Source of the DNA: Planctomycetota bacterium
GTDB lineage: Bacteria; Planctomycetota; Brocadiia; JAADGH01
Length of the DNA: 64,000 bases
NCBI GenBank assembly: GCA_013152475.1
Contig: JAADGH010000162.1
Coordinates: forward strand, 45,994-109,993
Direction: 5' to 3'
Shown here piece after piece: positions 36,618 through 62,795 of this stretch. Position 1 is the stretch's first letter; each line of letters begins with the position of its first letter. The notes beneath the pieces are model-generated. The model had not been told where the DNA came from. It did not search any database and saw only the letters and a list, made by a program, of their open reading frames with translations. Made by a program: the position numbers and the translations under genes.

Positions 36618-36675
36618 AGTCTAAACCAAAACCATGTCTCTTGTCAAGCAGCAAACTGTCGAGGAGGTTTCCCCA
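36618..36675 (-). promoter_or_regulatory. predicted EPS-operon promoter with upstream G-rich box
   Basis: Minus strand: TGGGGAAACCTCCT (36675-36662), 14 nt, TTGACA (36647-36642), 18 nt, TAGACT (36623-36618). AT-rich surroundings. 55-120 nt upstream of the Wza-like start. Confidence 0.45.
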
Positions 36676-36920
36676 TTACCTTTACCGTGTCATCGCGAGG
36701 CGCCTCGGGACGGCATAGCCGTTCGGCTCCGCCTCTTTGCTGCGAAAGGAGTCAGGCAGAGCCTGACGCCCGTTCCGAGGCAGTGCCTCGGAACGAGAAT
36801 GCAATCTCACCCCTCCAATCGGCCTCGTTTGATGAGATTGCCTGCCTGTGCGTCGCACGCAAACAGGCTTCGTTATCACGCGAAGCGCGTGACTCCTCAC
36901 AATGGCAGGGCGTGGGTTCC
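36662..36920. repeat. composite hairpin (REP/MITE-like) element, copy 1
   Basis: Core 36799-36920 is the reverse complement of 62562-62683 (5 mismatches in 122 nt by my hand alignment). Both copies end in ..GCGATGACACGG..GGGGAAAC(C)TCCT. Contains several perfect stems (TTCCGAGG/CCTCGGAA, TCACGCG/CGCGTGA, GTCAGG/CCTGAC). Copy 1 carries ~70 extra nt of hairpin modules. Confidence 0.8.
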
Positions 36921-37075
36921 GCAAGCCGAGTTTCGCAAACCAAATGACCGACAGTGATTACGCTTGATCCCGTCCGCATTCGGGGAAAGTCCTGAAAAAC
37001 CGCGCCGCGGCACGGCGGGGCTGGGGCGTGTCCTTCGTCGCCGGGGACTAAAGGCTTCTCAAACCCTCTCCCATC

Positions 37076-37084
37076 TGATATAAT
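37076..37084 (+). promoter_or_regulatory. extended -10 element TGATATAAT immediately upstream of the CPBP gene
   Basis: TG 37076-37077, TATAAT 37079-37084, then nine C (37085-37093) and ATG 37094. No Shine-Dalgarno sequence. Confidence 0.35.
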
Positions 37085-37093
37085 CCCCCCCCC

Positions 37094-38020
37094 ATGAAAC
37101 CGTATCAGAAACTCATCCTGGCCTTCGTCGCCATCGTCCTGCTTGCGTGCGTGCTATCGCCGATCGCAAAGCTCTACGTCGATGGACGCGTGCAGAAGAG
37201 CGAGGGCTTGGCCGACAAACTCCATTACGACGAGGTTACCAAAACCTATCGCTTCGGTAAAGTCTTCCGGCGGACGCTCATGGTCTCGGCGATCATCGTC
37301 CTCATCGCCATGGGCCGCGCACTGCAGATCGGGTCGGTTGCCAAGCAGGGCTATCTATGCAGGAAGGGCTGGTGGAGGGACCTTGCCTCCGGTGCGGGGA
37401 TCGGCATGGTTTCGATGGCCGCGTTCCTCGCGATCCTCTACCTCCTGGGCGCGACGATGTGGCGGACGGATATCGATGCCTCGGGGCTAATTTCCAACAT
37501 TGCGAAATTCCTGTTGGCGGTGGCCTGCATCGGCCTCTTCGAGGAGACCCTCTTTCGGGGCGTCGTGCTGCAAACGCTGATGAAGGACATGCGGTTCCTC
37601 TTTGCGGCGGTGCTGTCGAGCGTGCTCTACTCGCTGCTCCACTTCTTCAAGGCCAACGTGCCGGTGGGGATGGGCGGCGACTGGCTGATCGGCTTTCGCG
37701 CGCTGGAGGTCTGCTTCACGCCGCTCGTCACCGACCCCACGATCATCCCGGCGTTTCTGGGGCTGTTCCTGCTCGGAATGGTCTTTGCTTATGCATATCG
37801 CTGGACCAGCGCGCTCTATCTCCCCATCGCGCTCCACGCCTCCTGGGTCTTCGCCCTCAAGACCTCCGCCAAGCTCCTCTACCTCGGCATCGGCCATCCC
37901 CCCTGGCTCTACGGCACCAAACAGATCGTAGACGGCCTCTTGGGGTGCGTCTTCCTGCTCGTGGTGCTCATCCTGCTCTGCCTGCTCTACCGCAGACCGT
38001 CTGCGAAGCAGGAGTCCTGA
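37094..38020 (+). CDS. CPBP-family intramembrane glutamic endopeptidase (CAAX protease-like)
   Basis: Motif 1 FEETLFRGVVLQ, motif 2 LYSLLHFF, motif 3 IALHASWVF. Multi-TM protein. Confidence 0.85.
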   Translation: MKPYQKLILAFVAIVLLACVLSPIAKLYVDGRVQKSEGLADKLHYDEVTKTYRFGKVFRRTLMVSAIIVLIAMGRALQIGSVAKQGYLCRKGWWRDLASGAGIGMVSMAAFLAILYLLGATMWRTDIDASGLISNIAKFLLAVACIGLFEETLFRGVVLQTLMKDMRFLFAAVLSSVLYSLLHFFKANVPVGMGGDWLIGFRALEVCFTPLVTDPTIIPAFLGLFLLGMVFAYAYRWTSALYLPIALHASWVFALKTSAKLLYLGIGHPPWLYGTKQIVDGLLGCVFLLVVLILLCLLYRRPSAKQES

Positions 38021-38026
38021 CCGCCG

Positions 38027-41000
38027 TTATCTTCCCACTTCGCAAACGCGAATGTCGTCGAACCACACCTTGCCCGAATGCCGGCGGAAGAGGGTGTGGA
38101 GGCGCAGGCTCTGGATCGGCTTGGTCGGTTCGATGAGGACCTCGGCGTACTCCCAGTCGTGTGTGCCGGGGGCGAAGTCGATGGTCTGGCCGTAGAGCGG
38201 CGTACCGTCGGCGTATCGGATGTCCACATACACCGAGTAGTCGTGGTTCTTCCCCCCGCTCACGTTTTCCGCCTTGCTCCAGCCGCAGAGCAGGAGCGGC
38301 GTGGCCTTCTTCTGGTTCAGCGTCACCTCCTGCGATGCGCCGCGGAACTCGATGGGGTAGGGGTTCTCGCACTTCAGGCATGAGCCGCCCTTGCGTCCGC
38401 CGAGCGAGATGTCGAAGCCCTTCTCGTACGGCTCCCACGACTCCTTGCCCTTCTCGAAGCCGCCGTTCTTCAGCAGGTTCAACTCGGTCGGCGCATAGCC
38501 GAAGGTCAGGTCTTGCTCGAAAGGTTTTGCCATGCCTGTGATCGAGGCAACGACCTTCGCCTGCACGATTCCTGCCGTGGCTGCCTTCGGCGGCACGAAG
38601 GCGAACTCGTACTTCCCTGAGGCAAGGCCATCAAGTGCCACCGCGACTTCGGTGGGCTCGACAGTCCATCCGGCCGGCGGCTTGGGTGTGATCTTGCCAG
38701 CGATCTTGCTGCGGGCGTTGTTCTGAACCGCCGCCACGAACTTCGGCCCGTCCTCGCATCGTGTCACCGTCACATCGCACAGCGGCGAGACGACGAGTGA
38801 CGAGTCCACGCAAACCATAAACGGTCGCGCCTCGCGGTCGGCGACGAGTGTTGCCATCAGTGGCAGATACCCGCCGAGCCGCGCGTCCTTCGGCACGGGG
38901 ACGGCCATGTCCAACTCGCGCACCTCGCCGGGCTGGATCGAAGTGAGCAATGCATTGCCCACCGCCTTCAACTCGCCCCCGGCCATCAGGGCAAGCTTCA
39001 CATCGCTCAGCTTGGCCTTGCCTTGGTTGCTGACCTTGAGCACGGCCTTCGCCGAGCGCCCTGCCGGGGCGGTTCGGTCGCCGGCGATTTCGATGTGTAC
39101 TCCCGAGAGGATCATTTGCGCCAGAGAGATACGCTTGCCGAGGTCATGGATGTCCACCATGAGCCCCCGCGCGCACTTGCCTTTTTCCTTGCACAAGTGG
39201 CAGACCTTCACCGTCTGCGCCGCCAACACTTTGTCGTCGAACGGTGACATGCGCAACTGCCGGGCGATCTCCTTGAGTTGAGCCGTGACCGTTTTTTTGT
39301 CCGCGTCGGACATCTTTTCGCCTGCGATGCGGTTGCACATGGTGCGGATGTAGTTTAGCGCCAGAGCCACATGGTATCCGGCCGCACGGTCCTTGCTCGT
39401 CAGCCACAGGGCTGCCACCCCGCGCGGCGGGAGTGTGCCGCGAACGCGGAGCTTGCCCCAGTCGTCCTTGCCTTCGAGCTCGTGGTGGCTCACGAGGTCG
39501 TAGATGATATTGTCCTGCGTGTCGATGCCGAGGGCCTTCGTGTCGATCTTGATGTCAAATTTCCGGTCGGCGTCCGTGTCGTTGTAAACGCTTATCTGGA
39601 CGTCCCTTGCGACAGCCGTTCCGAACCGTTCCACGCGGATATTCGGGTCTTCTGATGTGGCATGTGTGATCGGCTCCCATCCCGCTTCGGCGAGCTTGAT
39701 AATGGTGGGGATGTATTTTTTGAAGAGATGCCGTTCGCGATTATGAAACTCCGGCGTGTTCCAGAAGTTGTCGTGCGCCGACGCGCCGGGACTGAACATG
39801 GAGGGCAGGAAGCCATAATAGAGGCACTTGGTGAAGTACTTTTCAACTTCGCGATCGCGAAATTTCGTGAAGTCCTCGTTGTTCAGGGGCAGGAAGGGCT
39901 TCTGGTAGGCCATGGTGCGCCGGATGTCGAGGTAGGCGTCGTCGGCGCCGGTGCGTTTCATCCAATGGATTTCATTGCCCACCACATCCAGGTAGTGCGC
40001 CATGAAGGGAAACCGGGTCATGAATCCGTTTGCCATCAGGAATTTCTTTTTCGGCTTCAATTTTCGCGCCATGTGGGCGACATATTCGTACACGGTAAAG
40101 CAGGTAAGCTGCACCGGCTTCTTCGTGTCGTAGCTGAACGTAAGAGGGAAGTCCGCCACGCGCCAGAGGTCTCGGCGGTAATTCTCGCTTGGGCCGCGCC
40201 ACTCGCCGAATCCGTCGAAGTAGACGCCGTCGAGGATGTTGCCTTGGGCCTCTTCCTTCTCGAAGCGGCCGAAGATCCGCTCGTCCATCACTTTCGCTTT
40301 TGTGATTTTGCCGGGCACCTCGGGATCGGCGCTGACCATAAAGTCGTAGACCGTTTTCCCCCGGGCCCAGTCGGCGGTGTACATGCGCGTCGAGTACTTC
40401 CCGTCCTTTGTGTAGATGCCGCACGTCTTGGCGATGGCGACCTTCTCGGCCTGCTTGTCCTTCACGGCGGGGTGTTCCAACGCCTCTTTGGGGGATGGCT
40501 TTTTCTTGACGTCGGGCGGCAGGTAGAAGCGCAGGCTCCACGGCTCGACATACACGAAGCTCAGGATGTTGTGTGCGTCGTCGTAACCCACATCGCTTGC
40601 GCCCTCTTGAAAGCCAAAACCGAAGTCCTCCGCCTTTTCGATCTTGCTGATCTTGGTGAACGGCTGCCAGATGCCCTGGCGCTTGGCGCGGCAGTCGAAA
40701 GACTGGGGGAAGATCTCGTAGTAGCGCTTCGCTGCGGCGCGGAATCCCCATTTGCCCTCGGTGCCGTAGATGATGAACTTGAACTTCGCGGCGGAGGGCG
40801 ACTTGCCCATGTCCGGACTCAGGCCGAGATCGAAGGCGATCTGGTATCGCTTCTTTTCCGGGTCATATGAGATGCGGTGGATGATCGGAGTATCCAGGGG
40901 AATGCCGATGCACACACCCACATCCTTGCTCACGCACGAGAAGGGATAGACCGAGTGCCTCCCGCCACTGTCGCCGTGCGTGGTCCAGTTGTGATACGCG

Positions 41001-41407
41001 CCGGCGTCTTCAATCTTTCGCGATGTGCGGATATCGTCCCACCACGTCCAGCCCCGGGCATCGAGGGGCAGGGCGAATTTGACGATAATCGCCCGGTCCT
41101 TGCCGGTCGTATCGCTGAGACGACCGTTCACCTCGACCCGCCCCGGGTTGATGACGTAGTCCATATCCAGCTCGATGCCGAGGTCGTCGCGATGGATGCG
41201 CTGTTTCGCGCCCTCCTCGGTTGTTTCGACCTTGCCGTGCACCCTGATCTCCGGCTTGCCATTGCCGAAGTCCTCAATGAAAATACTGGACTCATCAACA
41301 AGGCGCACGATGAGCTTGCCGCCGACGTAATCCGCCGGCGCAGGCCGGATGCCTGAAAGGAGCAGAAAGAGAAGCGTTGCACACAGCAGCATTCGGTGTT
41401 GTTTCAT
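38027..41407 (-). CDS. large secreted protein with C-terminal CBM4/9-like carbohydrate-binding domain; catalytic region unassigned
   Basis: Signal peptide MKQHRMLLCATLLFLLLSGIRPAPA. The C-terminal ~170 aa start NLLKNGGFEKGKESWEPY... and end ...KVWFDDIRVCEV, typical of CBM_4_9-like jelly rolls. The central ~700 aa have no motif I can name. Confidence 0.6.
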   Translation of the reverse strand: MKQHRMLLCATLLFLLLSGIRPAPADYVGGKLIVRLVDESSIFIEDFGNGKPEIRVHGKVETTEEGAKQRIHRDDLGIELDMDYVINPGRVEVNGRLSDTTGKDRAIIVKFALPLDARGWTWWDDIRTSRKIEDAGAYHNWTTHGDSGGRHSVYPFSCVSKDVGVCIGIPLDTPIIHRISYDPEKKRYQIAFDLGLSPDMGKSPSAAKFKFIIYGTEGKWGFRAAAKRYYEIFPQSFDCRAKRQGIWQPFTKISKIEKAEDFGFGFQEGASDVGYDDAHNILSFVYVEPWSLRFYLPPDVKKKPSPKEALEHPAVKDKQAEKVAIAKTCGIYTKDGKYSTRMYTADWARGKTVYDFMVSADPEVPGKITKAKVMDERIFGRFEKEEAQGNILDGVYFDGFGEWRGPSENYRRDLWRVADFPLTFSYDTKKPVQLTCFTVYEYVAHMARKLKPKKKFLMANGFMTRFPFMAHYLDVVGNEIHWMKRTGADDAYLDIRRTMAYQKPFLPLNNEDFTKFRDREVEKYFTKCLYYGFLPSMFSPGASAHDNFWNTPEFHNRERHLFKKYIPTIIKLAEAGWEPITHATSEDPNIRVERFGTAVARDVQISVYNDTDADRKFDIKIDTKALGIDTQDNIIYDLVSHHELEGKDDWGKLRVRGTLPPRGVAALWLTSKDRAAGYHVALALNYIRTMCNRIAGEKMSDADKKTVTAQLKEIARQLRMSPFDDKVLAAQTVKVCHLCKEKGKCARGLMVDIHDLGKRISLAQMILSGVHIEIAGDRTAPAGRSAKAVLKVSNQGKAKLSDVKLALMAGGELKAVGNALLTSIQPGEVRELDMAVPVPKDARLGGYLPLMATLVADREARPFMVCVDSSLVVSPLCDVTVTRCEDGPKFVAAVQNNARSKIAGKITPKPPAGWTVEPTEVAVALDGLASGKYEFAFVPPKAATAGIVQAKVVASITGMAKPFEQDLTFGYAPTELNLLKNGGFEKGKESWEPYEKGFDISLGGRKGGSCLKCENPYPIEFRGASQEVTLNQKKATPLLLCGWSKAENVSGGKNHDYSVYVDIRYADGTPLYGQTIDFAPGTHDWEYAEVLIEPTKPIQSLRLHTLFRRHSGKVWFDDIRVCEVGR

Positions 41408-41454
41408 GTCAAGTTCCTTGCGTTTCCATATTCAGGGAGTTCAAGCGCTGTCTA

Positions 41455-41510
41455 AATATACCCATTGCCACTGGAATCCTCAAGGGGAAAAACGACGAGG
41501 AGTTTTCCCA
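41455..41510 (-). promoter_or_regulatory. predicted promoter with upstream G-rich box for the 1126-aa secreted protein
   Basis: Minus strand: TGGGAAAACTCCT (41510-41498), 14 nt, TTGAGG (41483-41478), 17 nt, TATATT (41460-41455). ATG at 41407. Confidence 0.5.
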
Positions 41511-41609
41511 TGACCTCCGCGGTGTCATCGCTTCGTCATTTCCGCGTACGCGGGAATCCGCGGGTGTTCAAGGGTCTGCGACGAAGACCGCAGGCATAAA
41601 GCCTGCGAC
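41498..41609. repeat. partial copy of the hairpin-repeat family
   Basis: AGGAGTTTTCCCATGACCTCCGCGGTGTCATCGC is near-identical to the reverse complement of 62719-62752. It is followed by different hairpin modules (CCGCG..CGCGG, GCAGGC-ataaa-GCCTGC). Confidence 0.6.
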
Positions 41610-41800
41610 AACAGGGTTTTGGATAGGCTCTAAAGCGGGCCCGGCTCTGACTGCCGGAGCTGTGGTGTTAATAGGGGGTGCACATTTAAAAGTACCGAAC
41701 GAGCTCCATGCCACATATTGTGGTCCTTCCGGTGTGAAGCCCCACATGTGGATGTGCGGTGTGTATAACGTGTAACACCCCATTCGTGCAATTCAAGACG

Positions 41801-41958
41801 ACCAATCCGCAATCAGAGGAGTCCGGCTTCGACGGCGGGGCGTCCCCGCTCCTTCGGTTCGCGGAGGGGGCGGGGGTGGCCGACGTCCAGGTGGGAGGAG
41901 GGCGGTTTGTCGGTGAAGAACTGGCTCCGGCGCCACGCCTTGTCGATGTTCATGCGGT
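41801..41958 (-). pseudogene. orphan duplicate of the 3' end of the B12-binding radical SAM gene (left direct repeat)
   Basis: Ungapped match to 42712-42869 with 9 mismatches in 158 nt (hand alignment). The minus-strand frame still reads RMNIDKAWRRSQFFTDKPPSSHLDVGHPRPLREPKERGRPAVEAGLL-stop, versus RMSIDKAWRRSQFFTDKPPSSHLDVGHPHPLREPKERGRLAVEAGLI-stop in the intact gene. No upstream coding part. Confidence 0.8.
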
Positions 41959-42075
41959 GCGTGGCATGCTTGCCTGCATGCCGTATCCGCTACCGTACAC
42001 GGGCTGCCTACAACCCGTGCCGCACTCAAGCCCGTCGACGCGCGCGTCTACGAGATCGAGCCTTGAGCACGTGTG

Positions 42076-42300
42076 CTATGTCTTATGAGCTGCAGCTTGT
42101 CGAACGCTCTCGATCTGCGCCATGGCCTCGTCATCGAAGAGATTCGCGCCGCATTTCTTGCAGCGAAGCCTCTTGAGTTTCGGGACGATGGTGCCATCCC
42201 GGAGGCGGCAGTCACCGACGGCACGACGTAGGGCCATGGCGCCGCATTCGGGACATTCGAGGGGTTCTGAGGTTTTGGCTCTGATCTTCTTACCAGACAT
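42076..42300 (-). CDS. MqsA-like antitoxin, YgiT-type zinc-finger domain only (no HTH domain)
   Basis: MSGKKIRAKTSEPLECPECG...LKRLRCKKCGANLFDDEAMAQIESVRQ: two CxxC pairs and a helix as in the MqsA N-terminal domain. ATG 42300 overlaps the toxin stop by 11 nt. 74 aa. Confidence 0.65.
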   Translation of the reverse strand: MSGKKIRAKTSEPLECPECGAMALRRAVGDCRLRDGTIVPKLKRLRCKKCGANLFDDEAMAQIESVRQAAAHKT

Positions 42301-42646
42301 CAGTCGACCTCTTCGACGAGATAAGGACATAGAAGACATCGCGCCCTTCTTGGCTGAGGAGCTTTCCTTTCGTGTAGATCTCGATGCCATCGTATGTTAC
42401 TCCCTTGATGACATACAGCATCTCGCGCTTTCCCGACGTGGGGTTTCGTGAGCGCAGCTTCTTGCTGATTTCCGAGGCATTGATGATCGCTTCGTACACC
42501 AGATCACGCGTTAACCCCCCGGCGGCGATCTCATCCTCTGCCTTCTCGGTAAACAGTACTTGCCGACGGAGGACAAGTCGCTTGACTCGCGCAAGCGTAT
42601 CCACTCTTACCTTCCCTATTCTATCGGATTCTCGCGTAGGAGACAA
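42290..42646 (-). CDS. MqsR-family-like type II toxin (tentative)
   Basis: TLARVKRLVLRRQVLFTEKAEDEIAAGGLTRDLVYEAIINAS...DGIEIYTKGKL...VFYVLISSKRS resembles the MqsR layout (L..VK.LV..G.V..T..A......G........I). The toxin-first gene order matches mqsRA. Confidence 0.5.
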   Translation of the reverse strand: MSPTRESDRIGKVRVDTLARVKRLVLRRQVLFTEKAEDEIAAGGLTRDLVYEAIINASEISKKLRSRNPTSGKREMLYVIKGVTYDGIEIYTKGKLLSQEGRDVFYVLISSKRSTDVW

Positions 42647-42711
42647 GGAGTCTCATTTGCGGTTGGGATTTACAGGGATCATTTTACCACAAAGTGGACC
42701 CAAACGAAGCC

Positions 42712-42869
42712 CCAAATCCGCAATCAGATGAGTCCGGCTTCGACGGCGAGCCTCCCCCGCTCCTTCGGTTCGCGGAGGGGGTGGGGGTGGCCGACGTCCA
42801 GGTGGGAGGAGGGCGGTTTGTCGGTGAAGAACTGGCTCCGGCGCCACGCCTTGTCGATGCTCATGCGGT
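42712..42869. repeat. right direct repeat (functional 3' end of radical SAM gene) paired with 41801-41958
   Basis: See 41801-41958. Repeat offset is 911 bp. Similarity stops abruptly at both ends. Confidence 0.8.
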
Positions 42870-44316: not shown

Positions 44317-44369
44317 GACTCTGAAAAAGACTATGAACCCCCGAAATGTATGACAAATGCTAAAAAAGC

Positions 44370-44425
44370 ATAATATCACAAGCCGTCTGCCATTTTCAAG
44401 AGAAAAAGTAGGAGGAGTTTCCCCA
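44370..44425 (-). promoter_or_regulatory. predicted promoter with G-rich box for the radical SAM gene 42724-44316
   Basis: Minus strand: TGGGGAAACTCCT (44425-44413), 13 nt, TTGAAA (44399-44394), 18 nt, TATTAT (44375-44370). Confidence 0.5.
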
Positions 44426-44452
44426 GAGTCTCCGGCGTGTCTTCGCGGGTTA

Positions 44453-44510
44453 TGGGAAAACTCCTGAAATGAGTCGGAGCATTGACAAAAGGGCTGCGAT
44501 GTGGTAAGGT
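44453..44510 (+). promoter_or_regulatory. predicted promoter with G-rich box for gene 44578-45132
   Basis: TGGGAAAACTCCT (44453-44465), 16 nt, TTGACA (44482-44487), 17 nt, TAAGGT (44505-44510). Confidence 0.5.
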
Positions 44511-44577
44511 GTTTGTGGAATGTGTATTGTGGATTGGTTCGGCCGAGGGGCTTCCGGAGAGGGCATTGGAGAGTTCT

Positions 44578-45132: not shown

Positions 45133-45145
45133 TCCTGTCCCGCAC

Positions 45146-45300: not shown

Positions 45301-45333
45301 ACCTGTCTTGGTCACATAATTATTTTATCCCAC

Positions 45334-45362
45334 TTGACTTACGCCCATTCGTGGTGTAGACT
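45334..45362 (+). promoter_or_regulatory. sigma70-like promoter TTGACT-17-TAGACT
   Basis: TTGACT 45334-45339, 17-nt spacer, TAGACT 45357-45362. GGAGG SD 8 nt before ATG 45443. Confidence 0.5.
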
Positions 45363-46532: not shown

Positions 46533-47978
46533 TCAGCTCAGTTCCTGGAGCACGAAGTCGAGGACCTCCGGCGTGGGGCGGAGGAACCGGCGGGCAAGGC
46601 CCTCCATGAGACCCTCCCGGACCGCCTCGAAGCGCAGGCTGAGGACGGGCTCGGTGACGGAGACGCGGGCGAGGCCCCAGCCGTCGGCGTAGTCGATGCG
46701 CACGCCGTCCACCCGGCGGACGCGCTGGTCCCTGCCGGCGCCGGCGGCGATCCTCTCCACGATCTCGGCCGCTTTCCGGTTGTCGCACGGCATGCGGAGC
46801 TTCGGGCTGATGTGGTAGCTCGGGACGTCGTCCGCAAGCTCCGAGAGGGAGCGTCCCTCGCGGAGGAGCATCTGCCCCATGAGGAGCCCGGAGTAGAACC
46901 CGTCGTCGCCGCCATGGAGCGCGCGGTAGAAGAAATGCCCGCTGATCTCTCCGCCGTAGAGGGCGTCCTCGGCGAGCATCCGGGTCTTGATGAAGGCATG
47001 GCCCGCCTTTTCGAGGAGCGGCTCGCCGCCGCGTGCCTCGATCTGCTCGGGGACGATGCGGGAGCAGTTCACCTCGTAGACCACTTTCTCCCGAACGCCC
47101 GGTCGCGCCTGCGTGGCGAGGGTATGTCTTCCGAGGAGGACGATGGCCTTGTCCACGTTCACCTTTCGGCCCCTGTTATCGACGAACACGACCCGGTCGC
47201 CGTCGCCGTCAAAGGCCATGCCGTAGTCGGCCCTTTTCGAGCGCACTGCCGTGCAGAGCGCTTCGAGCGCGTCGCGGGTCGGATCGGGGGAGCGGTTCGG
47301 GAAACGCCCGTCCGGCTCGCAGAAAAGGGGGATGACGTCGATGCCCAGGCCGGCCATGATCTGTGGGGCGATGGCGGAGTAGCCGCCGTTCCCGCAATCG
47401 ACGGCAACGCAAAGGGGCATACGATCCCGAAATTGGTCGCGAATGAACTGACCGTAACGCTGCCTGAAGTCTTCCCTCCGCACGGACCCCTTCCCTGTCT
47501 CGAAGTCACCGCTCGCCACGATCTCGGCGAGGCGATCGATCTGGTCGGGCCGAACCGGCATGGATGAGAGGCAGAGCTTCAGTCCGTTGAACTGCGGGGG
47601 ATTGTGGGAGGCCGTGACGGTGGCGCAGGCATCGGAGTGGAGTTTTGCAAATGCAAAATAGAAGAGCGGCGTTGGGACGATGCCGATATCGACGACCTTT
47701 GCCCCGCCCGCGGCCATCCCCCCGACGAGGCCCTCCTTGAGTGCGGGGGTGCTCGTGCGCAGATCGCCGGCGACGAGGATGGTGGGGCTGGGTCTGCCGC
47801 CGTCCCGGATCAGAAGGGTGGCCATGGCCTGGCCGACGCGCTTCATGATGTCGTCGGTCAGGTCGTCGCCGTAGACGCCTCGGAGATCGCAGGGTTTGAA
47901 GATGCTCAATCGAGTACGGCGTCTTCCTTCCGGGTTTATCTTACGCGTCGCTTTCCCGTGCCGCCGCAGTGGCCGCAC
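46533..47978 (-). CDS. phosphomannomutase/phosphoglucomutase (alpha-D-phosphohexomutase superfamily)
   Basis: Active-site loop CATVTASHNPPQFNGLKL, N-terminus IFKPCDLRGVYG, metal loop AFDGDGDRVVFVD, sugar loop GGEISGHFFY. The start may be TTG 47909 (GGAAGGAAG upstream) rather than 47978, which would overlap the upstream gene. Confidence 0.9.
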   Translation of the reverse strand: MRPLRRHGKATRKINPEGRRRTRLSIFKPCDLRGVYGDDLTDDIMKRVGQAMATLLIRDGGRPSPTILVAGDLRTSTPALKEGLVGGMAAGGAKVVDIGIVPTPLFYFAFAKLHSDACATVTASHNPPQFNGLKLCLSSMPVRPDQIDRLAEIVASGDFETGKGSVRREDFRQRYGQFIRDQFRDRMPLCVAVDCGNGGYSAIAPQIMAGLGIDVIPLFCEPDGRFPNRSPDPTRDALEALCTAVRSKRADYGMAFDGDGDRVVFVDNRGRKVNVDKAIVLLGRHTLATQARPGVREKVVYEVNCSRIVPEQIEARGGEPLLEKAGHAFIKTRMLAEDALYGGEISGHFFYRALHGGDDGFYSGLLMGQMLLREGRSLSELADDVPSYHISPKLRMPCDNRKAAEIVERIAAGAGRDQRVRRVDGVRIDYADGWGLARVSVTEPVLSLRFEAVREGLMEGLARRFLRPTPEVLDFVLQELS

Positions 47979-50890
47979 GGTATGGTGTGGTTTTTGTCAC
48001 AGTGCCGGCACCTTACGTTGACCTCGCCGGTACCCTTGCAGGTCTTGCAGGTTTCCTTGCCGGTGCCGTTGCAGGCCCGGCAGATGGGTTTGCCCACTCC
48101 CTTGCAGGCATTGCAGATGATCTGTCGTGCGCCCTTGCAGAGAGGGCATGGCTTCCCATCAATCCGGCCGGCGCCTTTGCATTTGGGGCAGTCGAATTTC
48201 CCCTTCCCCTTGCACCGAGGACAGGGGGTGTTGACAGGGGCCTTGCCCGTGCCCCCACAGTTCGGGCAGGGGATACGCCCCGTGCCCTTGCAATCTCGAC
48301 AGGTGACCCATATATCCTCGTCAACTCGATTGCCCTTGCCGCCGCAAACCTTGCAGGGCACTTTGCCGCTGCCCCCGCACGCCTGGCAGACCCCTCTGGT
48401 CTTGCTGTTCTGACCGGTGCCTCGACATTTCGGGCACCGTTCGTTTGTGCGGCCGGTGCCGTTGCAGGCCGTGCACTGGACGTAGGGGTGGATCTTGCCC
48501 TTGCCTTTGCAGGTGACGCATTCGATGGTGCCTCGGGTGCCGCATGTTCCACAGTTGCCCTGCCGGACACGTGTCCCCCGGCAGACCGAGCAGGCGCACT
48601 TGCCCGTGCCGTTGCAGATGGGACAGCGGGTCTTTTCGGCCCGGAACCCCGTGCCGTTGCAGTATGGGCAGGGCAGGCGCTTCTTGCCGAGGCAAAAGGG
48701 GCACATCTCAGTCGCGCCGGCCTCGACCGAGGCCGCGGTCAAATCGGCAGGGGAGAGTTTGTCGGGTAGTTTCTTTTCGCCCAGCACGGCGCCGGCCAAT
48801 TTTTTCTGCAATGCCGCATCGGACTCAACGGCGGCATCGCTGAAGTAGAATTTTAGTTTTCCAAGGGCGGCGAGGGCGTGCACGTACATGCCCTGGCTCC
48901 AGTGTTTTACCGCCTCGGCGTAGAGGCCCTGTGCCTCCTCTCTGTTCAGCGCCGCTGCGGGGATCTCCTTTCTTTCGATCTGCGCCACGTCGTCCATGTT
49001 AAGGAGCCTGTTCACGGTGCGGCCGTCGACGTCGGTGACCTCCACCTTGAGAGTCTTGTCCGTACGCTTGGTCACCTTCCCCCTGATAACGTTCTTGGTT
49101 TTCAGGCGGATGAGATCGAACGACTTGCCCTGTTCCACGCGCGGGGGAGGATAGGCTTTCGGATCGGTCTTGATCCTCTGCGCGATCGCTGCCTTCTTCT
49201 CCTGGGCCTCTTTGTGGAGTTTTTTGTGGTCTTGGGAGGAGAGGTAGTAGTCATAGGTTGCCCACAAGGCATACGGGTTCTTGAACTTGGCGCAGATTGC
49301 GAGGAATTGTTTGGCCTCGGCCTCACGCCTTTCGGCGCCTTGCACCTTCGTGGCAGCGGCCTTGTTCGCCGCCGAGACATTGCGCGCCTCGGCGGCCTTC
49401 AACAGCCTCTTTTCCACATAGCGGGTGTTGCTCACGTCGGGCATGGCCTTCCAGTAGGCCTCCCGCGCTTCCGCCCATTGCTTGCCGGTTTCCAGTTTGC
49501 CGGCGGCAAGGACGAACCGTACCGCCGTAAGCTTCATTTCAAGCCTTCGTGCGAGCGTCTTATCGGGCCACGTGTCCTTCCCGAGCTTGGCAAGGCCGTC
49601 GGCGTAGAGCTGCTCTGCACGCCGCCAGTCCCCCTGGAGCTCGCGCTGCTTCGCCAATTCCGCCTTCTTCAGCACCTCGCGGCACCGCGTCTCGGTGTCG
49701 GGGGCCTTCTTCGCCTCCTTCACGGCGTTTGGAGTGAACCAGGGCGTGTTCAGATCGAAAAGCAGACCGCTCACGAACGTCGTCTTCCATGCGACAGTGT
49801 CCGGGTCGGGAATGGGCGCCCAGGTGTTGCCGTCGCTCCCCTTCCCCGATGTCAGCTCCTTGCCAAACCCTACGCTGTCGGCGTAGGCGGCGCCGGGATC
49901 GGGGCCCGCGTCGCCCTCGTATGGTCGGGCATCCATTTTTGTGAAATACACCTTGCCGTTCTGGTCGACGATGTAGGCATGAATTCCATCGGCGTAGCGC
50001 ACCTCGGGCCAGGCATAGCAGATGAAGGACTTTTCCTGAAGCTCCACGGCGGCCTTGTCATCCAACATCTTGCCGGGCCTCTCAGGTGTGCCGCCGAGGG
50101 TGTGGTCATCGCCGCCTTTTGCGCCGTTAGTGGCCAAGAACATGCGGAAGCGATACCCCTGGCAGCGCGCTGCGCCATCGCCCTCCGCGCCCCCGGTCGC
50201 AAAGACGTACGACAGATCGCCCTTCTTCGAGGTCAACTTGCTGGCGGGATCGCGAAGGCAGACCTCGTTGACCAGCTCCGCCAGCAGGCCGTACTCGCCG
50301 AGGCCGTTGTCGTTCTGGTCCACAAGGGCCTTGCGCCGGAATGCCTTCTGCGCGCCGGCGATCTTCGCGAGGTCCTTGACGACCCTTCGCTCGTTGCCCG
50401 CGACGACGCCGGCAATCTTGTAGGAGGTGAGGGCCTTGCTCGCGACAAGCACAATCACAGCAATGATTGCGGCGGCAATGCCCAGGCCGATCAGAAGGCG
50501 CAGCGCACGGGCGGCCCCTGCAAACCGGAAGCCGCCGACGCGGGTGGCGCCCTGCACCCCGGTCAGGATGTTCGTACCGCAGGCCACACAAACGACGGTG
50601 CCTTTGGCGACCATCGTCCCGCAATTGGGGCATTTGACCTGCTCTTGGGGTTTCTTTTGCGTCCTGGGCGCCGGTTCCTTCTTCGTCTCTTTTTCACTCT
50701 TGGGCGGGGATTTCTTCTCTCCCGATTTCGGGTCGGAGGCCTTCTGCTTCGACGTTGTTTCGGTCTTCTTCTCGGAGGAGGGAACCGTCAGAGATTCTCC
50801 ACACGCGGGACATTTGCCCTGTTTTCCGGCGAATTCGTCCTTGAGCACAAACTGCTTCCCGCACTCTTCGCACTTGACCTTGATCGGCAT
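47936..50890 (-). CDS. 984-aa membrane protein: two N-terminal zinc ribbons, one TM, pseudopilin/DUF2950-like domain, helical repeats and a C-terminal array of 20 CxxC (DnaJ CR-type) motifs
   Basis: Preferred ATG 50890 (MPIKVKCEECGKQF...CPACG; then CPNCG...CVACG). TM LLIGLGIAAAIIAVIVLVA. DNGLGEYGLL...YRFRMFLATNG...FICYAWPEVRYADGIHAYIVDQNGKVYF is pilin-like. The last ~255 aa (47939-48703) hold 20 CxxC motifs, about 16 of them as CxxCxGxG. Confidence 0.8.
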   Translation of the reverse strand: MPIKVKCEECGKQFVLKDEFAGKQGKCPACGESLTVPSSEKKTETTSKQKASDPKSGEKKSPPKSEKETKKEPAPRTQKKPQEQVKCPNCGTMVAKGTVVCVACGTNILTGVQGATRVGGFRFAGAARALRLLIGLGIAAAIIAVIVLVASKALTSYKIAGVVAGNERRVVKDLAKIAGAQKAFRRKALVDQNDNGLGEYGLLAELVNEVCLRDPASKLTSKKGDLSYVFATGGAEGDGAARCQGYRFRMFLATNGAKGGDDHTLGGTPERPGKMLDDKAAVELQEKSFICYAWPEVRYADGIHAYIVDQNGKVYFTKMDARPYEGDAGPDPGAAYADSVGFGKELTSGKGSDGNTWAPIPDPDTVAWKTTFVSGLLFDLNTPWFTPNAVKEAKKAPDTETRCREVLKKAELAKQRELQGDWRRAEQLYADGLAKLGKDTWPDKTLARRLEMKLTAVRFVLAAGKLETGKQWAEAREAYWKAMPDVSNTRYVEKRLLKAAEARNVSAANKAAATKVQGAERREAEAKQFLAICAKFKNPYALWATYDYYLSSQDHKKLHKEAQEKKAAIAQRIKTDPKAYPPPRVEQGKSFDLIRLKTKNVIRGKVTKRTDKTLKVEVTDVDGRTVNRLLNMDDVAQIERKEIPAAALNREEAQGLYAEAVKHWSQGMYVHALAALGKLKFYFSDAAVESDAALQKKLAGAVLGEKKLPDKLSPADLTAASVEAGATEMCPFCLGKKRLPCPYCNGTGFRAEKTRCPICNGTGKCACSVCRGTRVRQGNCGTCGTRGTIECVTCKGKGKIHPYVQCTACNGTGRTNERCPKCRGTGQNSKTRGVCQACGGSGKVPCKVCGGKGNRVDEDIWVTCRDCKGTGRIPCPNCGGTGKAPVNTPCPRCKGKGKFDCPKCKGAGRIDGKPCPLCKGARQIICNACKGVGKPICRACNGTGKETCKTCKGTGEVNVRCRHCDKNHTIPCGHCGGTGKRRVR

Positions 50891-50999
50891 GATTCGATCC
50901 TCGCGAGCCTTTTCAACGTTCCATTGCACTTTTATTATCGCTTTGCAATGGCTTGAAATCAAGCGATATTATCGTGGCGTTTCACAGAAAGACGTGTGC

Positions 51000-53288: not shown

Positions 53289-53352
53289 TCGCTGCGGTTG
53301 GGCGTCTTCGTGTGTCGGTCTGAATCTGCTTGAAAGAGAGAAACTCCCACAA

Positions 53353-57495: not shown

Positions 57496-57550
57496 CGGGT
57501 TATGATGTTTGATCGTAACACGCCGGGGCACAGGTGTCAATTGCCGGTCC

Positions 57551-57579
57551 TTGACAGGGCAAGGGGCGTTTGATAGGTT
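57551..57579 (+). promoter_or_regulatory. sigma70-like promoter TTGACA-17-TAGGTT
   Basis: TTGACA 57551-57556, 17-nt spacer, TAGGTT 57574-57579. Supports the downstream GTG 57620 start rather than TTG 57509. Confidence 0.5.
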
Positions 57580-57619
57580 GAGGTCGCGGCGGGATCAGAC
57601 CAGCAGGAATAGCCATACC

Positions 57620-59782: not shown

Positions 59783-59783
59783 C

Positions 59784-61961
59784 GTGGGCGAGAAGTTGGC
59801 GTTCGACAGCGTGATCCCCTTCCCCCTCGCGATCGGCGTGGTTGCGGCGCTCGCAGTGGGGTGCGTTGCTGCGTATGTGGCGACGGCGCGCCACCGTGTT
59901 TCGCCGGCTGCCCAGGTGGCCCTGATCCTGTTCCGGCTCGTGGCGTTGAGCGCCGTTGCCCTCCTGCTTCTCCGGCCGGCATGGCTGGCGGAGGAGACGA
60001 TCCGCGAAAAACTGGGCCTGGTCCTGCTGGCCGACGCATCGAAGAGCATGTCCATTCGTGACGGCGATGGCGGGCGGTCTCGCGCCGAGGTGGCGGCGGC
60101 CATCCTGAGGCTGTGCGGCCCCCAGCGCAGGCTCCTTGCGCAAAAATACCACTTTAGTGAATATCAATTCGACAGGAGCATCTCGGACCTGGCGCCGAAC
60201 GCCTACAAGGCGGACGGCGACGTGACGGCCATCGGCGATGCGCTCGCTCTCTCCCGCCGGCAGGTGACGGTCGGGAACGTTGCGGGCGCCGTCCTGCTGA
60301 CCGACGGGGCCAACAACTTCGGGCGTGACCCGGATGTGGTCGCCCGGGACTTTGGCTCGCGCAAGATACCGATCTATCCCGTCGTCATCGGCAAGAGCGA
60401 GATTGGGGAGGCCATCAAGGATGTGAAGGTGACCTCGTTGGACCTCGGCGCCTCGGCCTTTGCCCGGAGCGTTGTCCCGGTGACCGCGGACCTCCGATTC
60501 GTCTACTGTGACGGCGAAAAGGTCAAGGTGTCTTTACGGGTGGATGAGAAGACCGTCGAGAAGAAGGTCCTGACGGTCAAGGGCCCGGACGCGCGGCAGC
60601 GGGTGGCCTTTGATTTCGTGCCGGACACGCCGGGTTCGCGGAAGATCACGGTGGACGCCAAACCGGTGAAGGGCGAGATCATCACGACCAACAACAGCAT
60701 CAGCTCCTACCTTCATGTCCTTACCGGGGGGCTGAAGGTCCTCTATATCGACCGCCCGCGGAGCGAGTTCAAGTTCCTCCGGCAGGCCTTCGCCGAGGGG
60801 AAGGACATCCAGTTGACCGTGGTGGCAACCCTCGGCGAGGCCGTCGAGAGGCCCAAGACCCGGCAAGAGTGGAAGCGGTTCGATGCGGTGCTTGTGGGCG
60901 ACGTGCCGAGCAGCGTCTTCAGCCTGTCGCAACTGCGAAATCTGGAGCGGGCCGTCTCCCAGAACGGGATCGGCTTCGGCATGATCGCCGGCACGCGCAA
61001 CTTCTCCGCCGGGGGCTATGCCCGCAGCCCTGTGGCGAAGCTGCTGCCGGTGACACTGGGGGGAGAGACGCCATTCCGGGGGGAATACCGATTGCGTTTC
61101 ACCCCGGGCGGGCTGGGGCATTTTATGGTTCGGCTGGACAGTGATCCCGACGCGAACCGGAAGGCCTGGGCAGAGGTGCGCCCGCTCTCGGGCGGCATCG
61201 CGTTCAGCGGGACGAAACCCGGGGCCCACGTGCTGGCCTACGGACCGGACAACCAGCCGATCCTCGTCGTGCAGCAGTATGGCAAGGGAAGGACGATGGC
61301 CTTTGCGGCGGACACGACGTGGCGTTGGGCCTTTGCCGAGAAGGACACGAAGAAATTCCATCGCCGGTTCTGGCGGCAGGCGCTGCTGTGGCTGGGCGAC
61401 AAGGAGGGTCTGGGTCGGGCGAACGTCTGGGTCGGCCTTCAATCGCTGCGGGTCATCAAGGGCGAGCAGATGGACATCCGCGCCCACGTGGAGGATTCGC
61501 TCGGCCGCGATGTGCCGGACGCGAAGGTGAAGGGCAAAGTCGTCCTGCCCGGCGGAAAGACCGTCCCTGTCGTCTTTCGCTTCAGCGAAGATCAGTACGT
61601 CTGCTCCTACCGCCCGGCGACGGCGGGGGACTATCAGATAAGAGTGAGCGCGTACGGACTCGATGGCGCCCCGTTGGGCGACGACATGGTGAAGTTCCTG
61701 GCGTATGTGCCGGAGGTCGAACTGGAACGGCCGGCGGCGAACCCGGAGGCGATGAAGCGCCTCGCGGCCCTGTCGGGGGGGCGGCTCTACACGGCGGAGA
61801 CAGCCGGCGAGCTGTTCAAGGAGCTCGCCTTGCGCGACGCGAGCATCGAGATCAAGCGCACCGAGCCGCAGCCGATCTGGAGCGGTCGCTGGGTGCTCTA
61901 TGTCTTCCTTGCCGCGCTGACGCTGGAGTGGATCGTGCGGAAGCTCAACCGGCTTGTGTGA
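59784..61961 (+). CDS. VWA-domain membrane protein with GATase1-like (DUF1355-type) C-terminal domain
   Basis: GTG 59784 lies 1 nt after the upstream TGA (VGEKLAFDSVIPFPLAIGVVAALAVG...). MIDAS LVLLADASKSMS, LLTDGANNFG. GLKVLYIDRPRSEFKFL...FDAVLVGDVP is a GATase1-like fold. C-terminal TM. Confidence 0.75.
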   Translation: MGEKLAFDSVIPFPLAIGVVAALAVGCVAAYVATARHRVSPAAQVALILFRLVALSAVALLLLRPAWLAEETIREKLGLVLLADASKSMSIRDGDGGRSRAEVAAAILRLCGPQRRLLAQKYHFSEYQFDRSISDLAPNAYKADGDVTAIGDALALSRRQVTVGNVAGAVLLTDGANNFGRDPDVVARDFGSRKIPIYPVVIGKSEIGEAIKDVKVTSLDLGASAFARSVVPVTADLRFVYCDGEKVKVSLRVDEKTVEKKVLTVKGPDARQRVAFDFVPDTPGSRKITVDAKPVKGEIITTNNSISSYLHVLTGGLKVLYIDRPRSEFKFLRQAFAEGKDIQLTVVATLGEAVERPKTRQEWKRFDAVLVGDVPSSVFSLSQLRNLERAVSQNGIGFGMIAGTRNFSAGGYARSPVAKLLPVTLGGETPFRGEYRLRFTPGGLGHFMVRLDSDPDANRKAWAEVRPLSGGIAFSGTKPGAHVLAYGPDNQPILVVQQYGKGRTMAFAADTTWRWAFAEKDTKKFHRRFWRQALLWLGDKEGLGRANVWVGLQSLRVIKGEQMDIRAHVEDSLGRDVPDAKVKGKVVLPGGKTVPVVFRFSEDQYVCSYRPATAGDYQIRVSAYGLDGAPLGDDMVKFLAYVPEVELERPAANPEAMKRLAALSGGRLYTAETAGELFKELALRDASIEIKRTEPQPIWSGRWVLYVFLAALTLEWIVRKLNRLV

Positions 61962-61992
61962 TCCTCCCCAACTTCCAACCTGCCACGGCGCC

Positions 61993-62316
61993 CTATGGGG
62001 CGAGGGTCTGCCCATCGATCCACTTGAGGTACGGCTCCGACCCGGCGACGATCGGGAGGGCGATGATCTCGGGCACCTCGTAGCTGTGCAGCTCCTTGAC
62101 GCGCGCGGCAAGCCGGTCGAACAGGTCCCGGCGGGTCTTCATGATAAGGAGCACCTCCTCGTCATCGCAGACCTTCCCCTCCCAGCGATAGATGGAACGG
62201 ATGCTCTGGGTGATGTTGCCGCAGGCGGCAAGCCGCTCATCGACGACGGCCCTGGCGATCTTTGCCGCCTCCTCGCTGCTCGGGGCGGTGACGAAAACGG
62301 CGATGTGGCTGTCCAT
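61993..62316 (-). CDS. cutA: divalent-cation tolerance protein CutA
   Basis: Preferred ATG 62316: MDSHIAVFVTAPSSEEAAKIARAVVDERLAACGNITQSIRSIYRWEGKVCDDEEVLLIMKT...SYEVPEIIALPI is the canonical CutA1 sequence pattern. Confidence 0.9.
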   Translation of the reverse strand: MDSHIAVFVTAPSSEEAAKIARAVVDERLAACGNITQSIRSIYRWEGKVCDDEEVLLIMKTRRDLFDRLAARVKELHSYEVPEIIALPIVAGSEPYLKWIDGQTLAP

Positions 62317-62441
62317 GGTTTCTCTCCCTGGGTCCTTTCCGCGCGACGTTGGTAGCTGGCCGTGGCACAGTGTAGCCGCACGGGAGACGGCATGCAAGCC
62401 CGTTCATTCCCTTTTTCCGTCCAAATGTGGCCACGGGTGCA

Positions 62442-62500
62442 AAGTTATTTTCTGGTACAACGGGGTGGCAAGGTGTCATAATATTCCAGGACTTTCCCCA
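62442..62500 (-). promoter_or_regulatory. predicted cutA promoter with G-rich box
   Basis: Minus strand: TGGGGAAAGTCCT (62500-62488), 16 nt, TTGCCA (62471-62466), 18 nt, TAACTT (62447-62442). Confidence 0.4.
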
Positions 62501-62561
62501 AGAATTGAGTGCCATCTGCCGTAACCCATATTAGCCATTGCCCTTACTATGTTTGGTTCGT

Positions 62562-62752
62562 GGAACCCACGCCCTGTCACTGCGAGGAGTCACGCGCTTC
62601 GCGTGATAACGAAGCCTGTTTGCGTGCGACGCACAGGCAGGCAATCTCATCGAACGAGGCCGGTTGGAGGGGTGAGATTGCATCGCCACCTCTTTCGCTA
62701 TCGCGAAAGAGGCTCCTCGCGATGACACGGCGGAGGTCATGGGGAAACTCCT
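62562..62752. repeat. composite hairpin (REP/MITE-like) element, copy 2 (inverted relative to copy 1)
   Basis: 62562-62683 is the reverse complement of 36799-36920 (5 mismatches in 122 nt). The terminal GCGATGACACGGCGGAGGTCATGGGGAAACTCCT is shared with 41498-41531 and 36662-36700. Confidence 0.8.
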
Positions 62753-62795
62753 GTCGATTTTTTGTCTTGACAAAAGGAGATGGTGACGGTAATCT
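62740..62795 (+). promoter_or_regulatory. predicted promoter with G-rich box driving the riboswitch operon
   Basis: TGGGGAAACTCCT (62740-62752), 14 nt, TTGACA (62767-62772), 17 nt, TAATCT (62790-62795). Confidence 0.55.

Follow-up and report, generated by a model that had tools for sequence, protein, structure and literature searches.

A G-rich box phased to outward-facing promoters is the terminal inverted repeat of a small hairpin-rich repeat family in a Planctomycetota genome

Why should the same G-rich box recur at a nearly constant distance upstream of promoters that serve apparently unrelated genes? A sequence-only reading of 64,000 nt of Planctomycetota DNA (the window, by which we mean this whole stretch) had noted such a box at six sites and offered two answers, an activator site joining EPS export, a secreted protein and B12/radical-SAM genes in one regulon, or a repeat element that delivers an outward-facing promoter. 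Here, we find that this 13-nt box forms the inverted termini of a small family of noncoding, hairpin-rich repeats. A pattern search of the window recovered five exact copies of TGGGRAAASTCCT, at 41498(-), 44413(-), 44453(+), 62488(-) and 62740(+), against 0.00 expected, together with two variants, one carrying a 1-nt insertion (36662-36675, minus strand, TGGGGAAACCTCCT) and one at 36981-36993 on the plus strand (CGGGGAAAGTCCT). All six boxes first reported were confirmed, while the seventh, at 36981, and the inverted pairing of boxes at the ends of repeat elements had been overlooked.

Inverted pairs of boxes bound three discrete elements, which we call E1, E3 and E4. E1 (36662..36993, minus strand) is a complete element of 332 bp, with a box on the hairpin side (R-type) at 36662-36675 and one at the other end (L-type) at 36981-36993, and E4 (62488..62752, plus strand) is a complete element of 265 bp, with its L-type box at 62488-62500 and its R-type box at 62740-62752. 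These two are homologous from box to box, with 64% identity overall, 95% in a conserved hairpin core of 124 nt (36799..36922, minus strand, in E1; 62560-62683 in E4) and about 52% in the 72 nt adjoining the L-type box. The core is more conserved than the element termini, and the similarity stops at the boxes, beyond which the outer flanks of the L-type ends are unrelated (p = 0.81). E3 (44413..44465, minus strand) is a minimal element of 53 bp, in which the 34-nt R-type end is joined almost directly to an L-type box so that 27 nt separate the two inverted boxes. A fourth copy, E2 (41498..41531, minus strand), is a solo R-type end (GCGATGACACCGCGGAGGTCATGGGAAAACTCCT) that matches the 34-nt end module exactly and the end of E4 at 87% identity; no convincing partner box was found for it. 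The module GCGAWGACAC-N11-box is exact at three sites and carries an insertion at 36662.

As in MITEs, the elements have inverted termini, the 13-nt box standing at both ends of E1, E3 and E4, and they are small (53-332 bp), noncoding and multicopy, with four copies within 26 kb of the window. Their open reading frames are hairpin-encoded only and are not conserved beyond 7 aa, which leaves them without coding capacity. As single strands, E1 folds into multiple hairpins (z = -4.5), E4 folds with its two boxes paired (z = -8.0), and the termini of E3 pair as a foldback. The box itself is not a REP palindrome, having neither a GTAG nor a CGTC tag and a self-pairing potential of only 4 bp. In Rfam, the 124-nt core matched no family, and searches at gathering thresholds and permissive E-values returned only the cobalamin riboswitch at 62832-62977. 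Several other identities for the box were tried and rejected. An ECF-sigma -35 element (GGAAC-like) would call for a CGT-type -10 at 16-17 nt, and a sigma54 -24/-12 element for a GC at -12, neither of which is conserved; as an intrinsic terminator, the box would have a stem of only 4-5 bp; and as a small reverse-strand ORF (AGGAG-N7-ATG, 'MTSAVSS'), it would have only 7 conserved aa and an ATG that is lost in E1 and E3. An invertible promoter switch was set aside because the inverted repeats do not enclose the promoters and E3 has an interior of only 27 nt, and helical phasing of paired boxes because their centres lie at inconsistent distances (40, 252 and 318.5 bp).

The phasing of the box to promoters proved to be real when all six spacings were re-read. 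A TTGnnn hexamer followed, after a spacer of 17-18 nt, by TAnnnT is located 13-16 nt outside six of the seven boxes (P ~3e-14, given that this composite pattern follows 0.4% of intergenic positions in this window). At the four R-type ends, 14, 14, 13 and 14 nt separate box and hexamer, and of the three L-type ends, two have a gap of 16 nt; the box at 36981-36993 has no -35 hexamer at 13-16 nt. At these six ends, the box has the fixed position relative to the promoter (13-14 or 16 nt) that would be expected of an operator, and it covers about -50 to -62, which leaves 21-25 nt between the end of its G-run and the -35 hexamer. All six promoters are consensus predictions, and conservation supports only two of them, those of the EPS operon (TTGACA-18-TAGACT, 36618..36647, minus strand, 14 nt outside the R-type box of E1) and of a gene for a 184-aa exported protein (TTGACA-17-TAAGGT, 44482..44510, plus strand, 16 nt outside the L-type box of E3). 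Two predictions are matches to the consensus only, one for a gene encoding a 1126-aa secreted protein (TTGAGG-17-TATATT, 41455..41483, minus strand, 14 nt outside the box of E2) and one for cutA (TTGCCA-18-TAACTT, 62442..62471, minus strand, 16 nt outside the L-type box of E4). The remaining predicted promoters belong to a gene for a B12-binding radical SAM protein (TTGAAA-18-TATTAT, 44370..44399, minus strand, 13 nt outside the R-type box of E3) and to the cobalamin-riboswitch/cbpA-cbpB operon (TTGACA-17-TAATCT, 62767..62795, plus strand, 14 nt outside the R-type box of E4).

Comparison with the closest available relative, GCA_040755855.1, which shares about 85% amino acid identity with the host, a Planctomycetota MAG, bears directly on both of the original proposals. 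At the EPS operon, window positions 36618-36662 align to 9762-9805 of the relative's L007 (38/45 aligned columns; score 48 vs a null maximum of 27), with homology beginning at the last base of the box. At the gene for the 184-aa protein, whose product is 74% identical between the two genomes, the counterpart of 44479-44538 is L005 6395-6454(-), with an alignment score of 30 against a null maximum of 26 (p <= 0.001), and within the spacer the stretch GCGATGTG is identical in both. Both orthologous promoters are well conserved in the relative and carry no box. This indicates that the EPS and 184-aa promoters are ancestral rather than brought by the repeat, being by sequence comparison older than the element, and it speaks against the box as a conserved operator. 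The third comparison, of the radical SAM promoter with that of the relative, gave no significant similarity (p = 0.08); in the relative, the promoter of this gene has a box of the relative's own type 23 nt upstream.

The suggestion that the repeat delivers an outward-facing promoter is consequently refuted at the R-type end of E1 and the L-type end of E3, the two ends where it could be judged, since both promoters pre-date the element; what stands of that suggestion is that the box belongs to a repeat element, as its terminal inverted repeat. A mobile unit that includes the -35 and possibly the -10, as in Correia elements, would account for the BLAST similarity among R-type ends, which extends 17-21 nt beyond the box through a T-tract and TTGA, and for a weak similarity among some outer flanks. 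However, the relative, which lacks the box, has every part of the EPS promoter (14-nt gap, -35, spacer and -10), the 184-aa promoter is likewise there, and spacers and -10 regions are unrelated between copies. The shared T-tract, 3-4 nt upstream of the -35, is seen in the relative as well and looks like an intrinsic feature of the promoter, as does TTGA. We therefore give a promoter-carrying repeat almost no credence.

The relative has a repeat family of its own, in which an inverted box of different sequence (CCCCCGTSAYTGAGGGG) bounds REP mosaics. It is a parallel family with the same architecture, and the G-run of its box lies 23 nt before each of three -35 hexamers (23, 23, 23), compared with 21-25 nt in the window. 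The window-type box, on the other hand, occurs 0 times in 56.6 kb of the relative, where about 6 copies would be expected at window density. Together with the box-less EPS and 184-aa promoters and the lack of a common function among the adjoining genes, this leaves the proposed activator-site regulon of EPS export, secreted protein and B12/radical-SAM genes unsupported. A younger regulon is another matter, as the box could function in cis as a regulatory site with its centre near -56/-58, to which an activator, an architectural protein or the C-terminal domain of the RNA polymerase alpha subunit would bind; the repeat would have spread this site, and selection would keep only the rightly spaced copies. 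Its fixed spacing and orientation relative to the -35 at six promoters would suit such a site, as would the minimal E3, which keeps both boxes intact with nearly all of the interior lost, the better conservation of the boxes than of the adjoining interior, and the unrelated-looking box of the relative, with its G-run at the same distance from the -35. Yet close relatives differ in the sequence of the box, as would seldom be seen with a transcription factor and its sites, no promoter stands at the usual distance from the intact box at 36981, and no candidate regulator was identified; with the box-less orthologous promoters and functionally unrelated neighbours also against it, we consider a regulon built by the mobile element unlikely.

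The reading that we tentatively favour, at a little below an even chance, is that a lineage-specific mosaic family of the MITE/REPIN/BIME kind, with the box as its terminal inverted repeat, is placed at the upstream edge of host sigma70-type promoters. Copies would occupy untranscribed space upstream of outward-facing host promoters, with element ends stopping at the promoter's upstream edge, at about -50. The constant offset would then be set by placement of the element, through insertion or retention beside a promoter feature, for which the T-tract/-35 region or bound RNA polymerase are candidates, and target choice rather than regulatory selection would be the cause of the spacing. At two complete elements, promoters stand at both ends, an arrangement that is hard to obtain by a single targeted insertion, and placement leaves the higher conservation of the 124-nt core than of the termini unexplained.

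A passive filter could in principle produce a similar picture. If insertion were nonspecific, only insertions between back-to-back promoters might survive in compact divergent regions, so that both ends of the survivors would abut the promoters' essential upstream zones. All four copies do sit in 5'-5' intergenic regions, each end of E3 and of E4 faces a promoter, at distances that sum to 29-30 nt per element, and the T-tract beside the -35 may well belong to the promoter itself. The spacing is nevertheless too exact for such a filter (13, 14, 14 and 14 nt; 16 and 16 nt; 23, 23 and 23 nt in the relative), it holds at E1 and E2, where there is no promoter on the opposite side, and the relative's corresponding intergenic regions, at 355-754 bp, are not compact. 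We regard this explanation as distinctly unlikely.

The relative offers no clean empty site. At the E1 locus, the EPS operon is collinear with the relative up to the box and unrelated past it, and neither the far flank nor the interior of E1 shows similarity to the relative. At the E3 locus, a 3.5-kb gene that lies between the relative's two promoters is missing from the window. The element is thus absent at two orthologous promoters of the relative, with opposite flanks that are not syntenic, which makes simple insertion no more than a possibility at E1 and E3. For the E4 site, a search for CbpB homologues gave no close ortholog (best 63%). Breaks of synteny at the boxes would also be expected if the boxes were crossover sites or hotspots of a recombination that swaps or deletes promoter-adjacent segments, making them cassette junctions rather than transposon ends. 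However, homologous recombination between dispersed repeat copies accounts for these breaks equally well, no gene for a recombinase lies nearby, and the homology of E1 and E4 extends over their whole length, as would be expected of copies of a single unit. We attach little probability to this alternative.

If the family is placed as we propose, it would presumably be mobile, and its insertion would leave no target duplication. The longest perfect direct repeats flanking the elements measure 3-4 nt and are no longer than those around random positions. Neither a transposase with matching ends nor an autonomous element with the same termini was found in the window, no Y1 transposase was present among the window ORFs scanned, and a RAYT/TIRYT gene was seen neither in the window nor at the loci of the relative. 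The only transposase remnant in the window, IS4-like and located at 4570-5019, is unrelated and has no box at its ends. Insertion that leaves no target duplication would fit a single-strand mechanism (HUH/Y1, RAYT/TIRYT-like) or a site-specific one better than classical DDE cut-and-paste. Beyond the two genomes, the pattern GGAGGTCATGGGRAAACTCCT gave 4 isolated matches in unrelated taxa and no family copies among GTDB species representatives; we take these matches to be chance, and one that was inspected falls in coding DNA. No copies were found in JGI metagenomes with a window-checked pattern, or in IMG/VR, plasmids and phages. The lack of the window-type box in the relative and in public collections fits a young, lineage-restricted family.

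The constant phasing is the most interesting property still without an explanation. We can imagine a bolder account, which we regard as possible though rather doubtful, in which these are nonautonomous selfish repeats, with sister families in related Planctomycetota, that seek out one set position where a sigma70 promoter begins on its upstream side. Promoter DNA, or RNA polymerase bound to it, might guide them there, and the same promoters would see the elements turn over from lineage to lineage. To our knowledge, docking at a fixed offset from pre-existing -35 elements has not been reported for any MITE or REP family of bacteria. Were this account true, the elements could rewire or insulate divergent promoter pairs. 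Promoter- or polymerase-guided integration is so far known mainly from eukaryotic retroelements, and, if the offset does reflect the choice of insertion site, these repeats would be a bacterial counterpart. They would also provide a handle on promoter architecture in Planctomycetota, whose promoters are poorly mapped. If, on the other hand, a regulator binds the box, this would be a clear example of a mobile repeat that has joined unrelated operons, for EPS export, a secreted glycan-binding protein, and radical-SAM and RiPP genes, in a regulon of recent origin. Whichever holds, there is a practical lesson, namely that a motif resembling the operator of a regulon can be the terminus of a repeat element, and that orthologous promoters tell the two apart.

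Among known systems, the elements invite comparison with the Correia elements of Neisseria (CREE/NEMIS) and with promoter-associated bacterial MITEs, which are likewise small, noncoding and multicopy, have terminal inverted repeats, lie directly upstream of genes and have sigma70-type promoters at one or both ends. CREE bring promoter hexamers of their own, duplicate a TA target on insertion, contain an IHF site and are in many cases co-transcribed (PMC2649163, PMC10969869). In contrast, the promoters of the window elements are external, and those of EPS and the 184-aa gene appear older than the element; the elements have no detectable target duplication and lie in what we read as untranscribed DNA between divergent promoters. 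Their interior, a variable mosaic of short GC-rich hairpins, recalls instead the BIMEs of E. coli and the NIMEs of Neisseria. We know of no report of a fixed promoter-proximal position for BIMEs or NIMEs, and the window elements differ further in that their bounding 13-nt box is not a REP palindrome and has no GTAG or CGTC tag. Neisseria NIMEs consist of RS units flanked by dRS3, which are CGTC-1 REPs, with a CGTC tag, an 8-bp stem whose first bases are AT, a loop of 3-4 nt and a tail of CCA/CCG (PMC3733652). Hairpins in E2 and in the relative's element fit this description. The stretch beside E2, 41534-41640, is made up of further hairpin repeats, which are found in the relative too, with a CGTC-type REP hairpin at 41534-41560 and a second hairpin that matches the relative's L005 13775-13870.

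The inverted doublets that form a large hairpin, the lack of target duplication, and the homogeneity within a genome alongside divergence between species are shared with the REPIN/RAYT and TIRtron/TIRYT systems of IS200/IS605-like Y1 HUH transposases. The terminal inverted repeats that flank RAYT-like transposase genes have the motif GGGGWSAS (PMC3733652). The G-run motif of the boxes (GGGGAAAC and GGGGTTAC, with GGGG-WWAC in common) is near to it, with a mismatch at position 6, and we treat the resemblance as a lead only. Unlike those systems, the elements come with no RAYT/TIRYT gene, either in the window or at the loci of the relative, and no cleavage tetranucleotide was identified. Finally, class I activator sites and UP elements of sigma70 promoters occupy a fixed position at about -50 to -62 in constant orientation. 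Although the box lies within a dispersed repeat, is absent from the relative's orthologous promoters and is replaced in the relative by a different sequence, it has that same position and that same constancy of orientation.

Rather than standing alone, the G-rich boxes of the window occur as inverted pairs enclosing discrete elements. Such pairs bound E1 (36662-36993, 332 bp), E3 (44413-44465, 53 bp) and E4 (62488-62752, 265 bp); in E3 a 34-nt R-type end, the hairpin-side end with a GCGAWGACAC-N11 module, is almost directly joined to a box of the other, L-type end. The fourth copy, E2 (41498-41531), consists of an unpaired R-type end. The alignment of E1 with E4 extends from one box to the other, with the same module order, an internal indel and 64% identity overall; at the L-type end their similarity halts at the box, the outer flanks being unrelated (p = 0.81). 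Both fold into hairpin stacks in which the two boxes are paired (z = -8.0 for E4, -4.5 for E1). We found no Rfam match for the four elements, no conserved ORF within them and no target-site duplication, direct repeats in the flanks being no longer than those around random positions, and all four copies occupy 5'-5' intergenic regions. Collectively, these features identify the box as the terminal inverted repeat of a MITE/REPIN/BIME-like mosaic repeat.

Within this mosaic, a 124-nt hairpin core (E4 62560-62683, E1 36922-36799) is 95% identical between copies, compared with 50-80% for the remainder of both elements, so that conservation is higher in the core than at the termini. The core matches no Rfam family and contains no obvious promoter; gene conversion, nesting of a younger repeat or functional, perhaps RNA-level, constraint might explain its identity. 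On the opposite strand the box reads AGGAG-N7-ATG and opens short ORFs starting MTSAVSS (E4 62695-62752(-), E2 41498-41599(+)). Since E1 and E3 have lost this ATG and conservation stops after seven residues, these ORFs probably arise as a side effect of the hairpin sequence.

A pattern search of the 64-kb window returned five exact matches to TGGGRAAASTCCT (41498(-), 44413(-), 44453(+), 62488(-) and 62740(+)), against 0.00 expected by chance. The sequence-only reading had placed six boxes at constant phasing upstream of promoters, and both claims were borne out: its sixth site, a minus-strand variant with a 1-nt insertion (36662-36675), was also re-found, and a two-mismatch search added a seventh that it had missed, CGGGGAAAGTCCT at 36981-36993(+). 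Reading all sites, we found outside six of the seven boxes a TTGnnn hexamer followed, after a 17-18 nt spacer, by TAnnnT; promoters in the window and in the relative compared below are consensus predictions. The gap from box to hexamer is 14, 14, 13 and 14 nt at the four R-type ends and 16 nt at two of the three L-type ends. The composite occurs at box spacing after 0.08% of all window positions and 0.4% of intergenic ones; against the latter background, its presence at six of seven ends has P ~3e-14, and the coupling is therefore not due to chance.

Orthologous promoters indicate which partner is older. The nearest available genome, the MAG GCA_040755855.1, shares ~85% amino acid identity for the radical SAM and polysaccharide-export proteins, and we compared three of its loci (L005, L007 and L008; 56.6 kb). 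The EPS-operon promoter, outside the R-type box of E1, aligns over 38/45 columns (window 36618-36662, L007 9762-9805) with a score of 48 (null scores average 17 and peak at 27); the alignment starts at the last box base and spans the 14 nt upstream of the -35, TTGACA, the spacer and TAGACT. Outside the L-type box of E3, the promoter of the gene for a 184-aa exported protein (74% identical between the genomes) aligns between window 44479-44538 and L005 6395-6454(-) with a score of 30 (p <= 0.001), and an identical GCGATGTG lies within the spacer. The radical SAM promoter, outside the R-type box of E3, showed weak similarity (p = 0.08). Intergenic window-type boxes at <=1 mismatch number 0 in the 56.6 kb, with ~6 expected at window density. 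Judged from these alignments, the EPS and 184-aa-gene promoters are clearly orthologous to box-less counterparts; they therefore pre-date the element and were not delivered by it, and the box is not a conserved operator. The earlier proposal of an activator-site regulon was not supported by the comparison; the alternative, a mobile repeat delivering an outward promoter, stands for the repeat terminus, given the inverted pairs and E1/E4 homology, and is refuted for the promoter at two ends. That the repeat carries the promoter is accordingly highly improbable. Alternatively, the box would be a functional activator-like or UP-like site that the repeat has spread and selection has positioned. This would accommodate the constant phasing; the box being absent from the relative's EPS and 184-aa promoters, we consider it unlikely.

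Synteny with the relative is broken at the boxes, so that it offers no clean empty site for E1 or E3: collinearity of the EPS operon ends at E1, with unrelated DNA on the far side, and a 3.5-kb gene lying between the two E3 promoters in the relative is missing from the window. Boxes might accordingly be recombination junctions, an explanation we find improbable.

The relative has its own box family. In L005, six copies of CCCCCGTSAYTGAGGGG(W)TAC, all intergenic, form inverted pairs enclosing hairpin mosaics (9749-9895, 13022-13145 and 13414-13557). In three copies the -35 (TTGAGC, TTGACT, TTGACT) begins exactly 23 nt after the G-run, and in a fourth 32 nt after it, compared with 21-23 nt (R-type) and 24-25 nt (L-type) in the window. 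The two families have only TG(A)GGGG-WWAC in common, and at the same position of the radical SAM promoter L005 carries its own box type and the window the other. Given this shared geometry, the architecture of inverted boxes, hairpin mosaic and G-run ~22 nt before the -35 is conserved while its sequence is lineage-specific. Evolving selfish repeats behave in this way, which is rare for a transcription factor with its binding sites. Since the six CCCCCGTSAYTGAGGGG copies fall within 14 kb in L005 and none in the two other loci (43 kb total), the radical SAM gene and its syntenic surroundings are where both families cluster.

The window-type family is lineage-restricted. Exact-pattern scans of GTDB species representatives (chance matches only), JGI metagenomes and IMG/VR, and BLAST against plasmids and phages, returned no members, and proteins neighbouring the boxes assign the window to an uncultured Planctomycetota lineage. 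DNA adjoining E2 is made of other hairpin repeats. Hairpins at window 41534-41560 and L005 9788-9869, the latter a head-to-head dimer within the first mosaic, fit the CGTC-1 REP family, CGTC + ATTCCCGC-loop-GCGGGAAT + CCA, described by a CGTC tag, an AT-initiated 8-bp stem and a short loop (PMC3733652). This class, which includes Neisseria dRS3, here occurs in a Planctomycetota lineage.

The window holds other features of note. In a 155-nt direct repeat (95% identity), one copy forms the 3' end of the B12-radical SAM gene (42715-42869) and the other is its displaced duplicate (41804-41958). Together they bracket a two-gene cassette (42076-42646(-)) for a 118-aa protein that matches no family and a zinc-ribbon protein of 104 aa whose MqsA-antitoxin-like match is weak; it looks like a small island integrated into the gene's 3' end, bringing a replacement end. 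Beyond the R-type box of E4, a cobalamin riboswitch precedes cbpA (precursor peptide, 63008-63220, TIGR04164) and cbpB (radical SAM maturase, from 63222 and running past the window end); the nearest relative lacks a close ortholog of this B12-riboswitch-controlled RiPP operon (62832-63998). A truncated IS4-like transposase ORF (4570-5019; DUF4372, partial DDE_Tnp_1) in a lower-GC stretch (~55-56% at 4-10 kb) was ruled out as a family relative, having no box at its ends. Most direct-repeat families in the window are the short Cys-rich repeats of a 1008-aa ORF (47936-50962, minus), with CxxCxGxG/DnaJ-zinc-finger-like and zinc-ribbon matches.

We tentatively favor a reading in which elements are placed beside a promoter feature, each end stopping at about -50. 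The likely cue would be a T-tract at about -39 to -44, also present in the relative's promoters, the -35 region or bound RNA polymerase, and placement would proceed by a mechanism leaving no duplication. Placement leaves unexplained the promoters at both ends of two complete elements, the better-conserved core and the intact box at 36981, whose nearest promoter is 63 nt off. Promoters at both ends could alternatively reflect a passive survival filter between back-to-back promoters, which we regard as rather unlikely. To our knowledge, no repeat has been reported to dock at a constant distance from promoters older than itself.

Among known systems, the closest are Correia elements and other promoter-bearing MITEs (PMC2649163, PMC10969869), BIME and NIME mosaics, and REPIN/RAYT and TIRtron repeats (PMC3733652); the literature cited for the MITE/Correia, BIME/NIME and REPIN/RAYT families does not describe such fixed-offset docking next to promoters already in place. 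A GGGGWSAS motif is reported for terminal inverted repeats flanking RAYT-like (TIRYT) transposase genes (PMC3733652), and the G-run motif of the boxes is one position off it, a lead rather than a test. The window's family differs from classical MITEs in lacking a target-site duplication, from REPs in lacking their tag and palindrome, from Correia-like elements in not having the promoter inside, and from a regulon operator in that its box is not conserved at orthologous promoters. Based on four copies in the window and six in the relative, and with mobility and function inferred from sequence, the family would work most like a REPIN/MITE-type selfish repeat.
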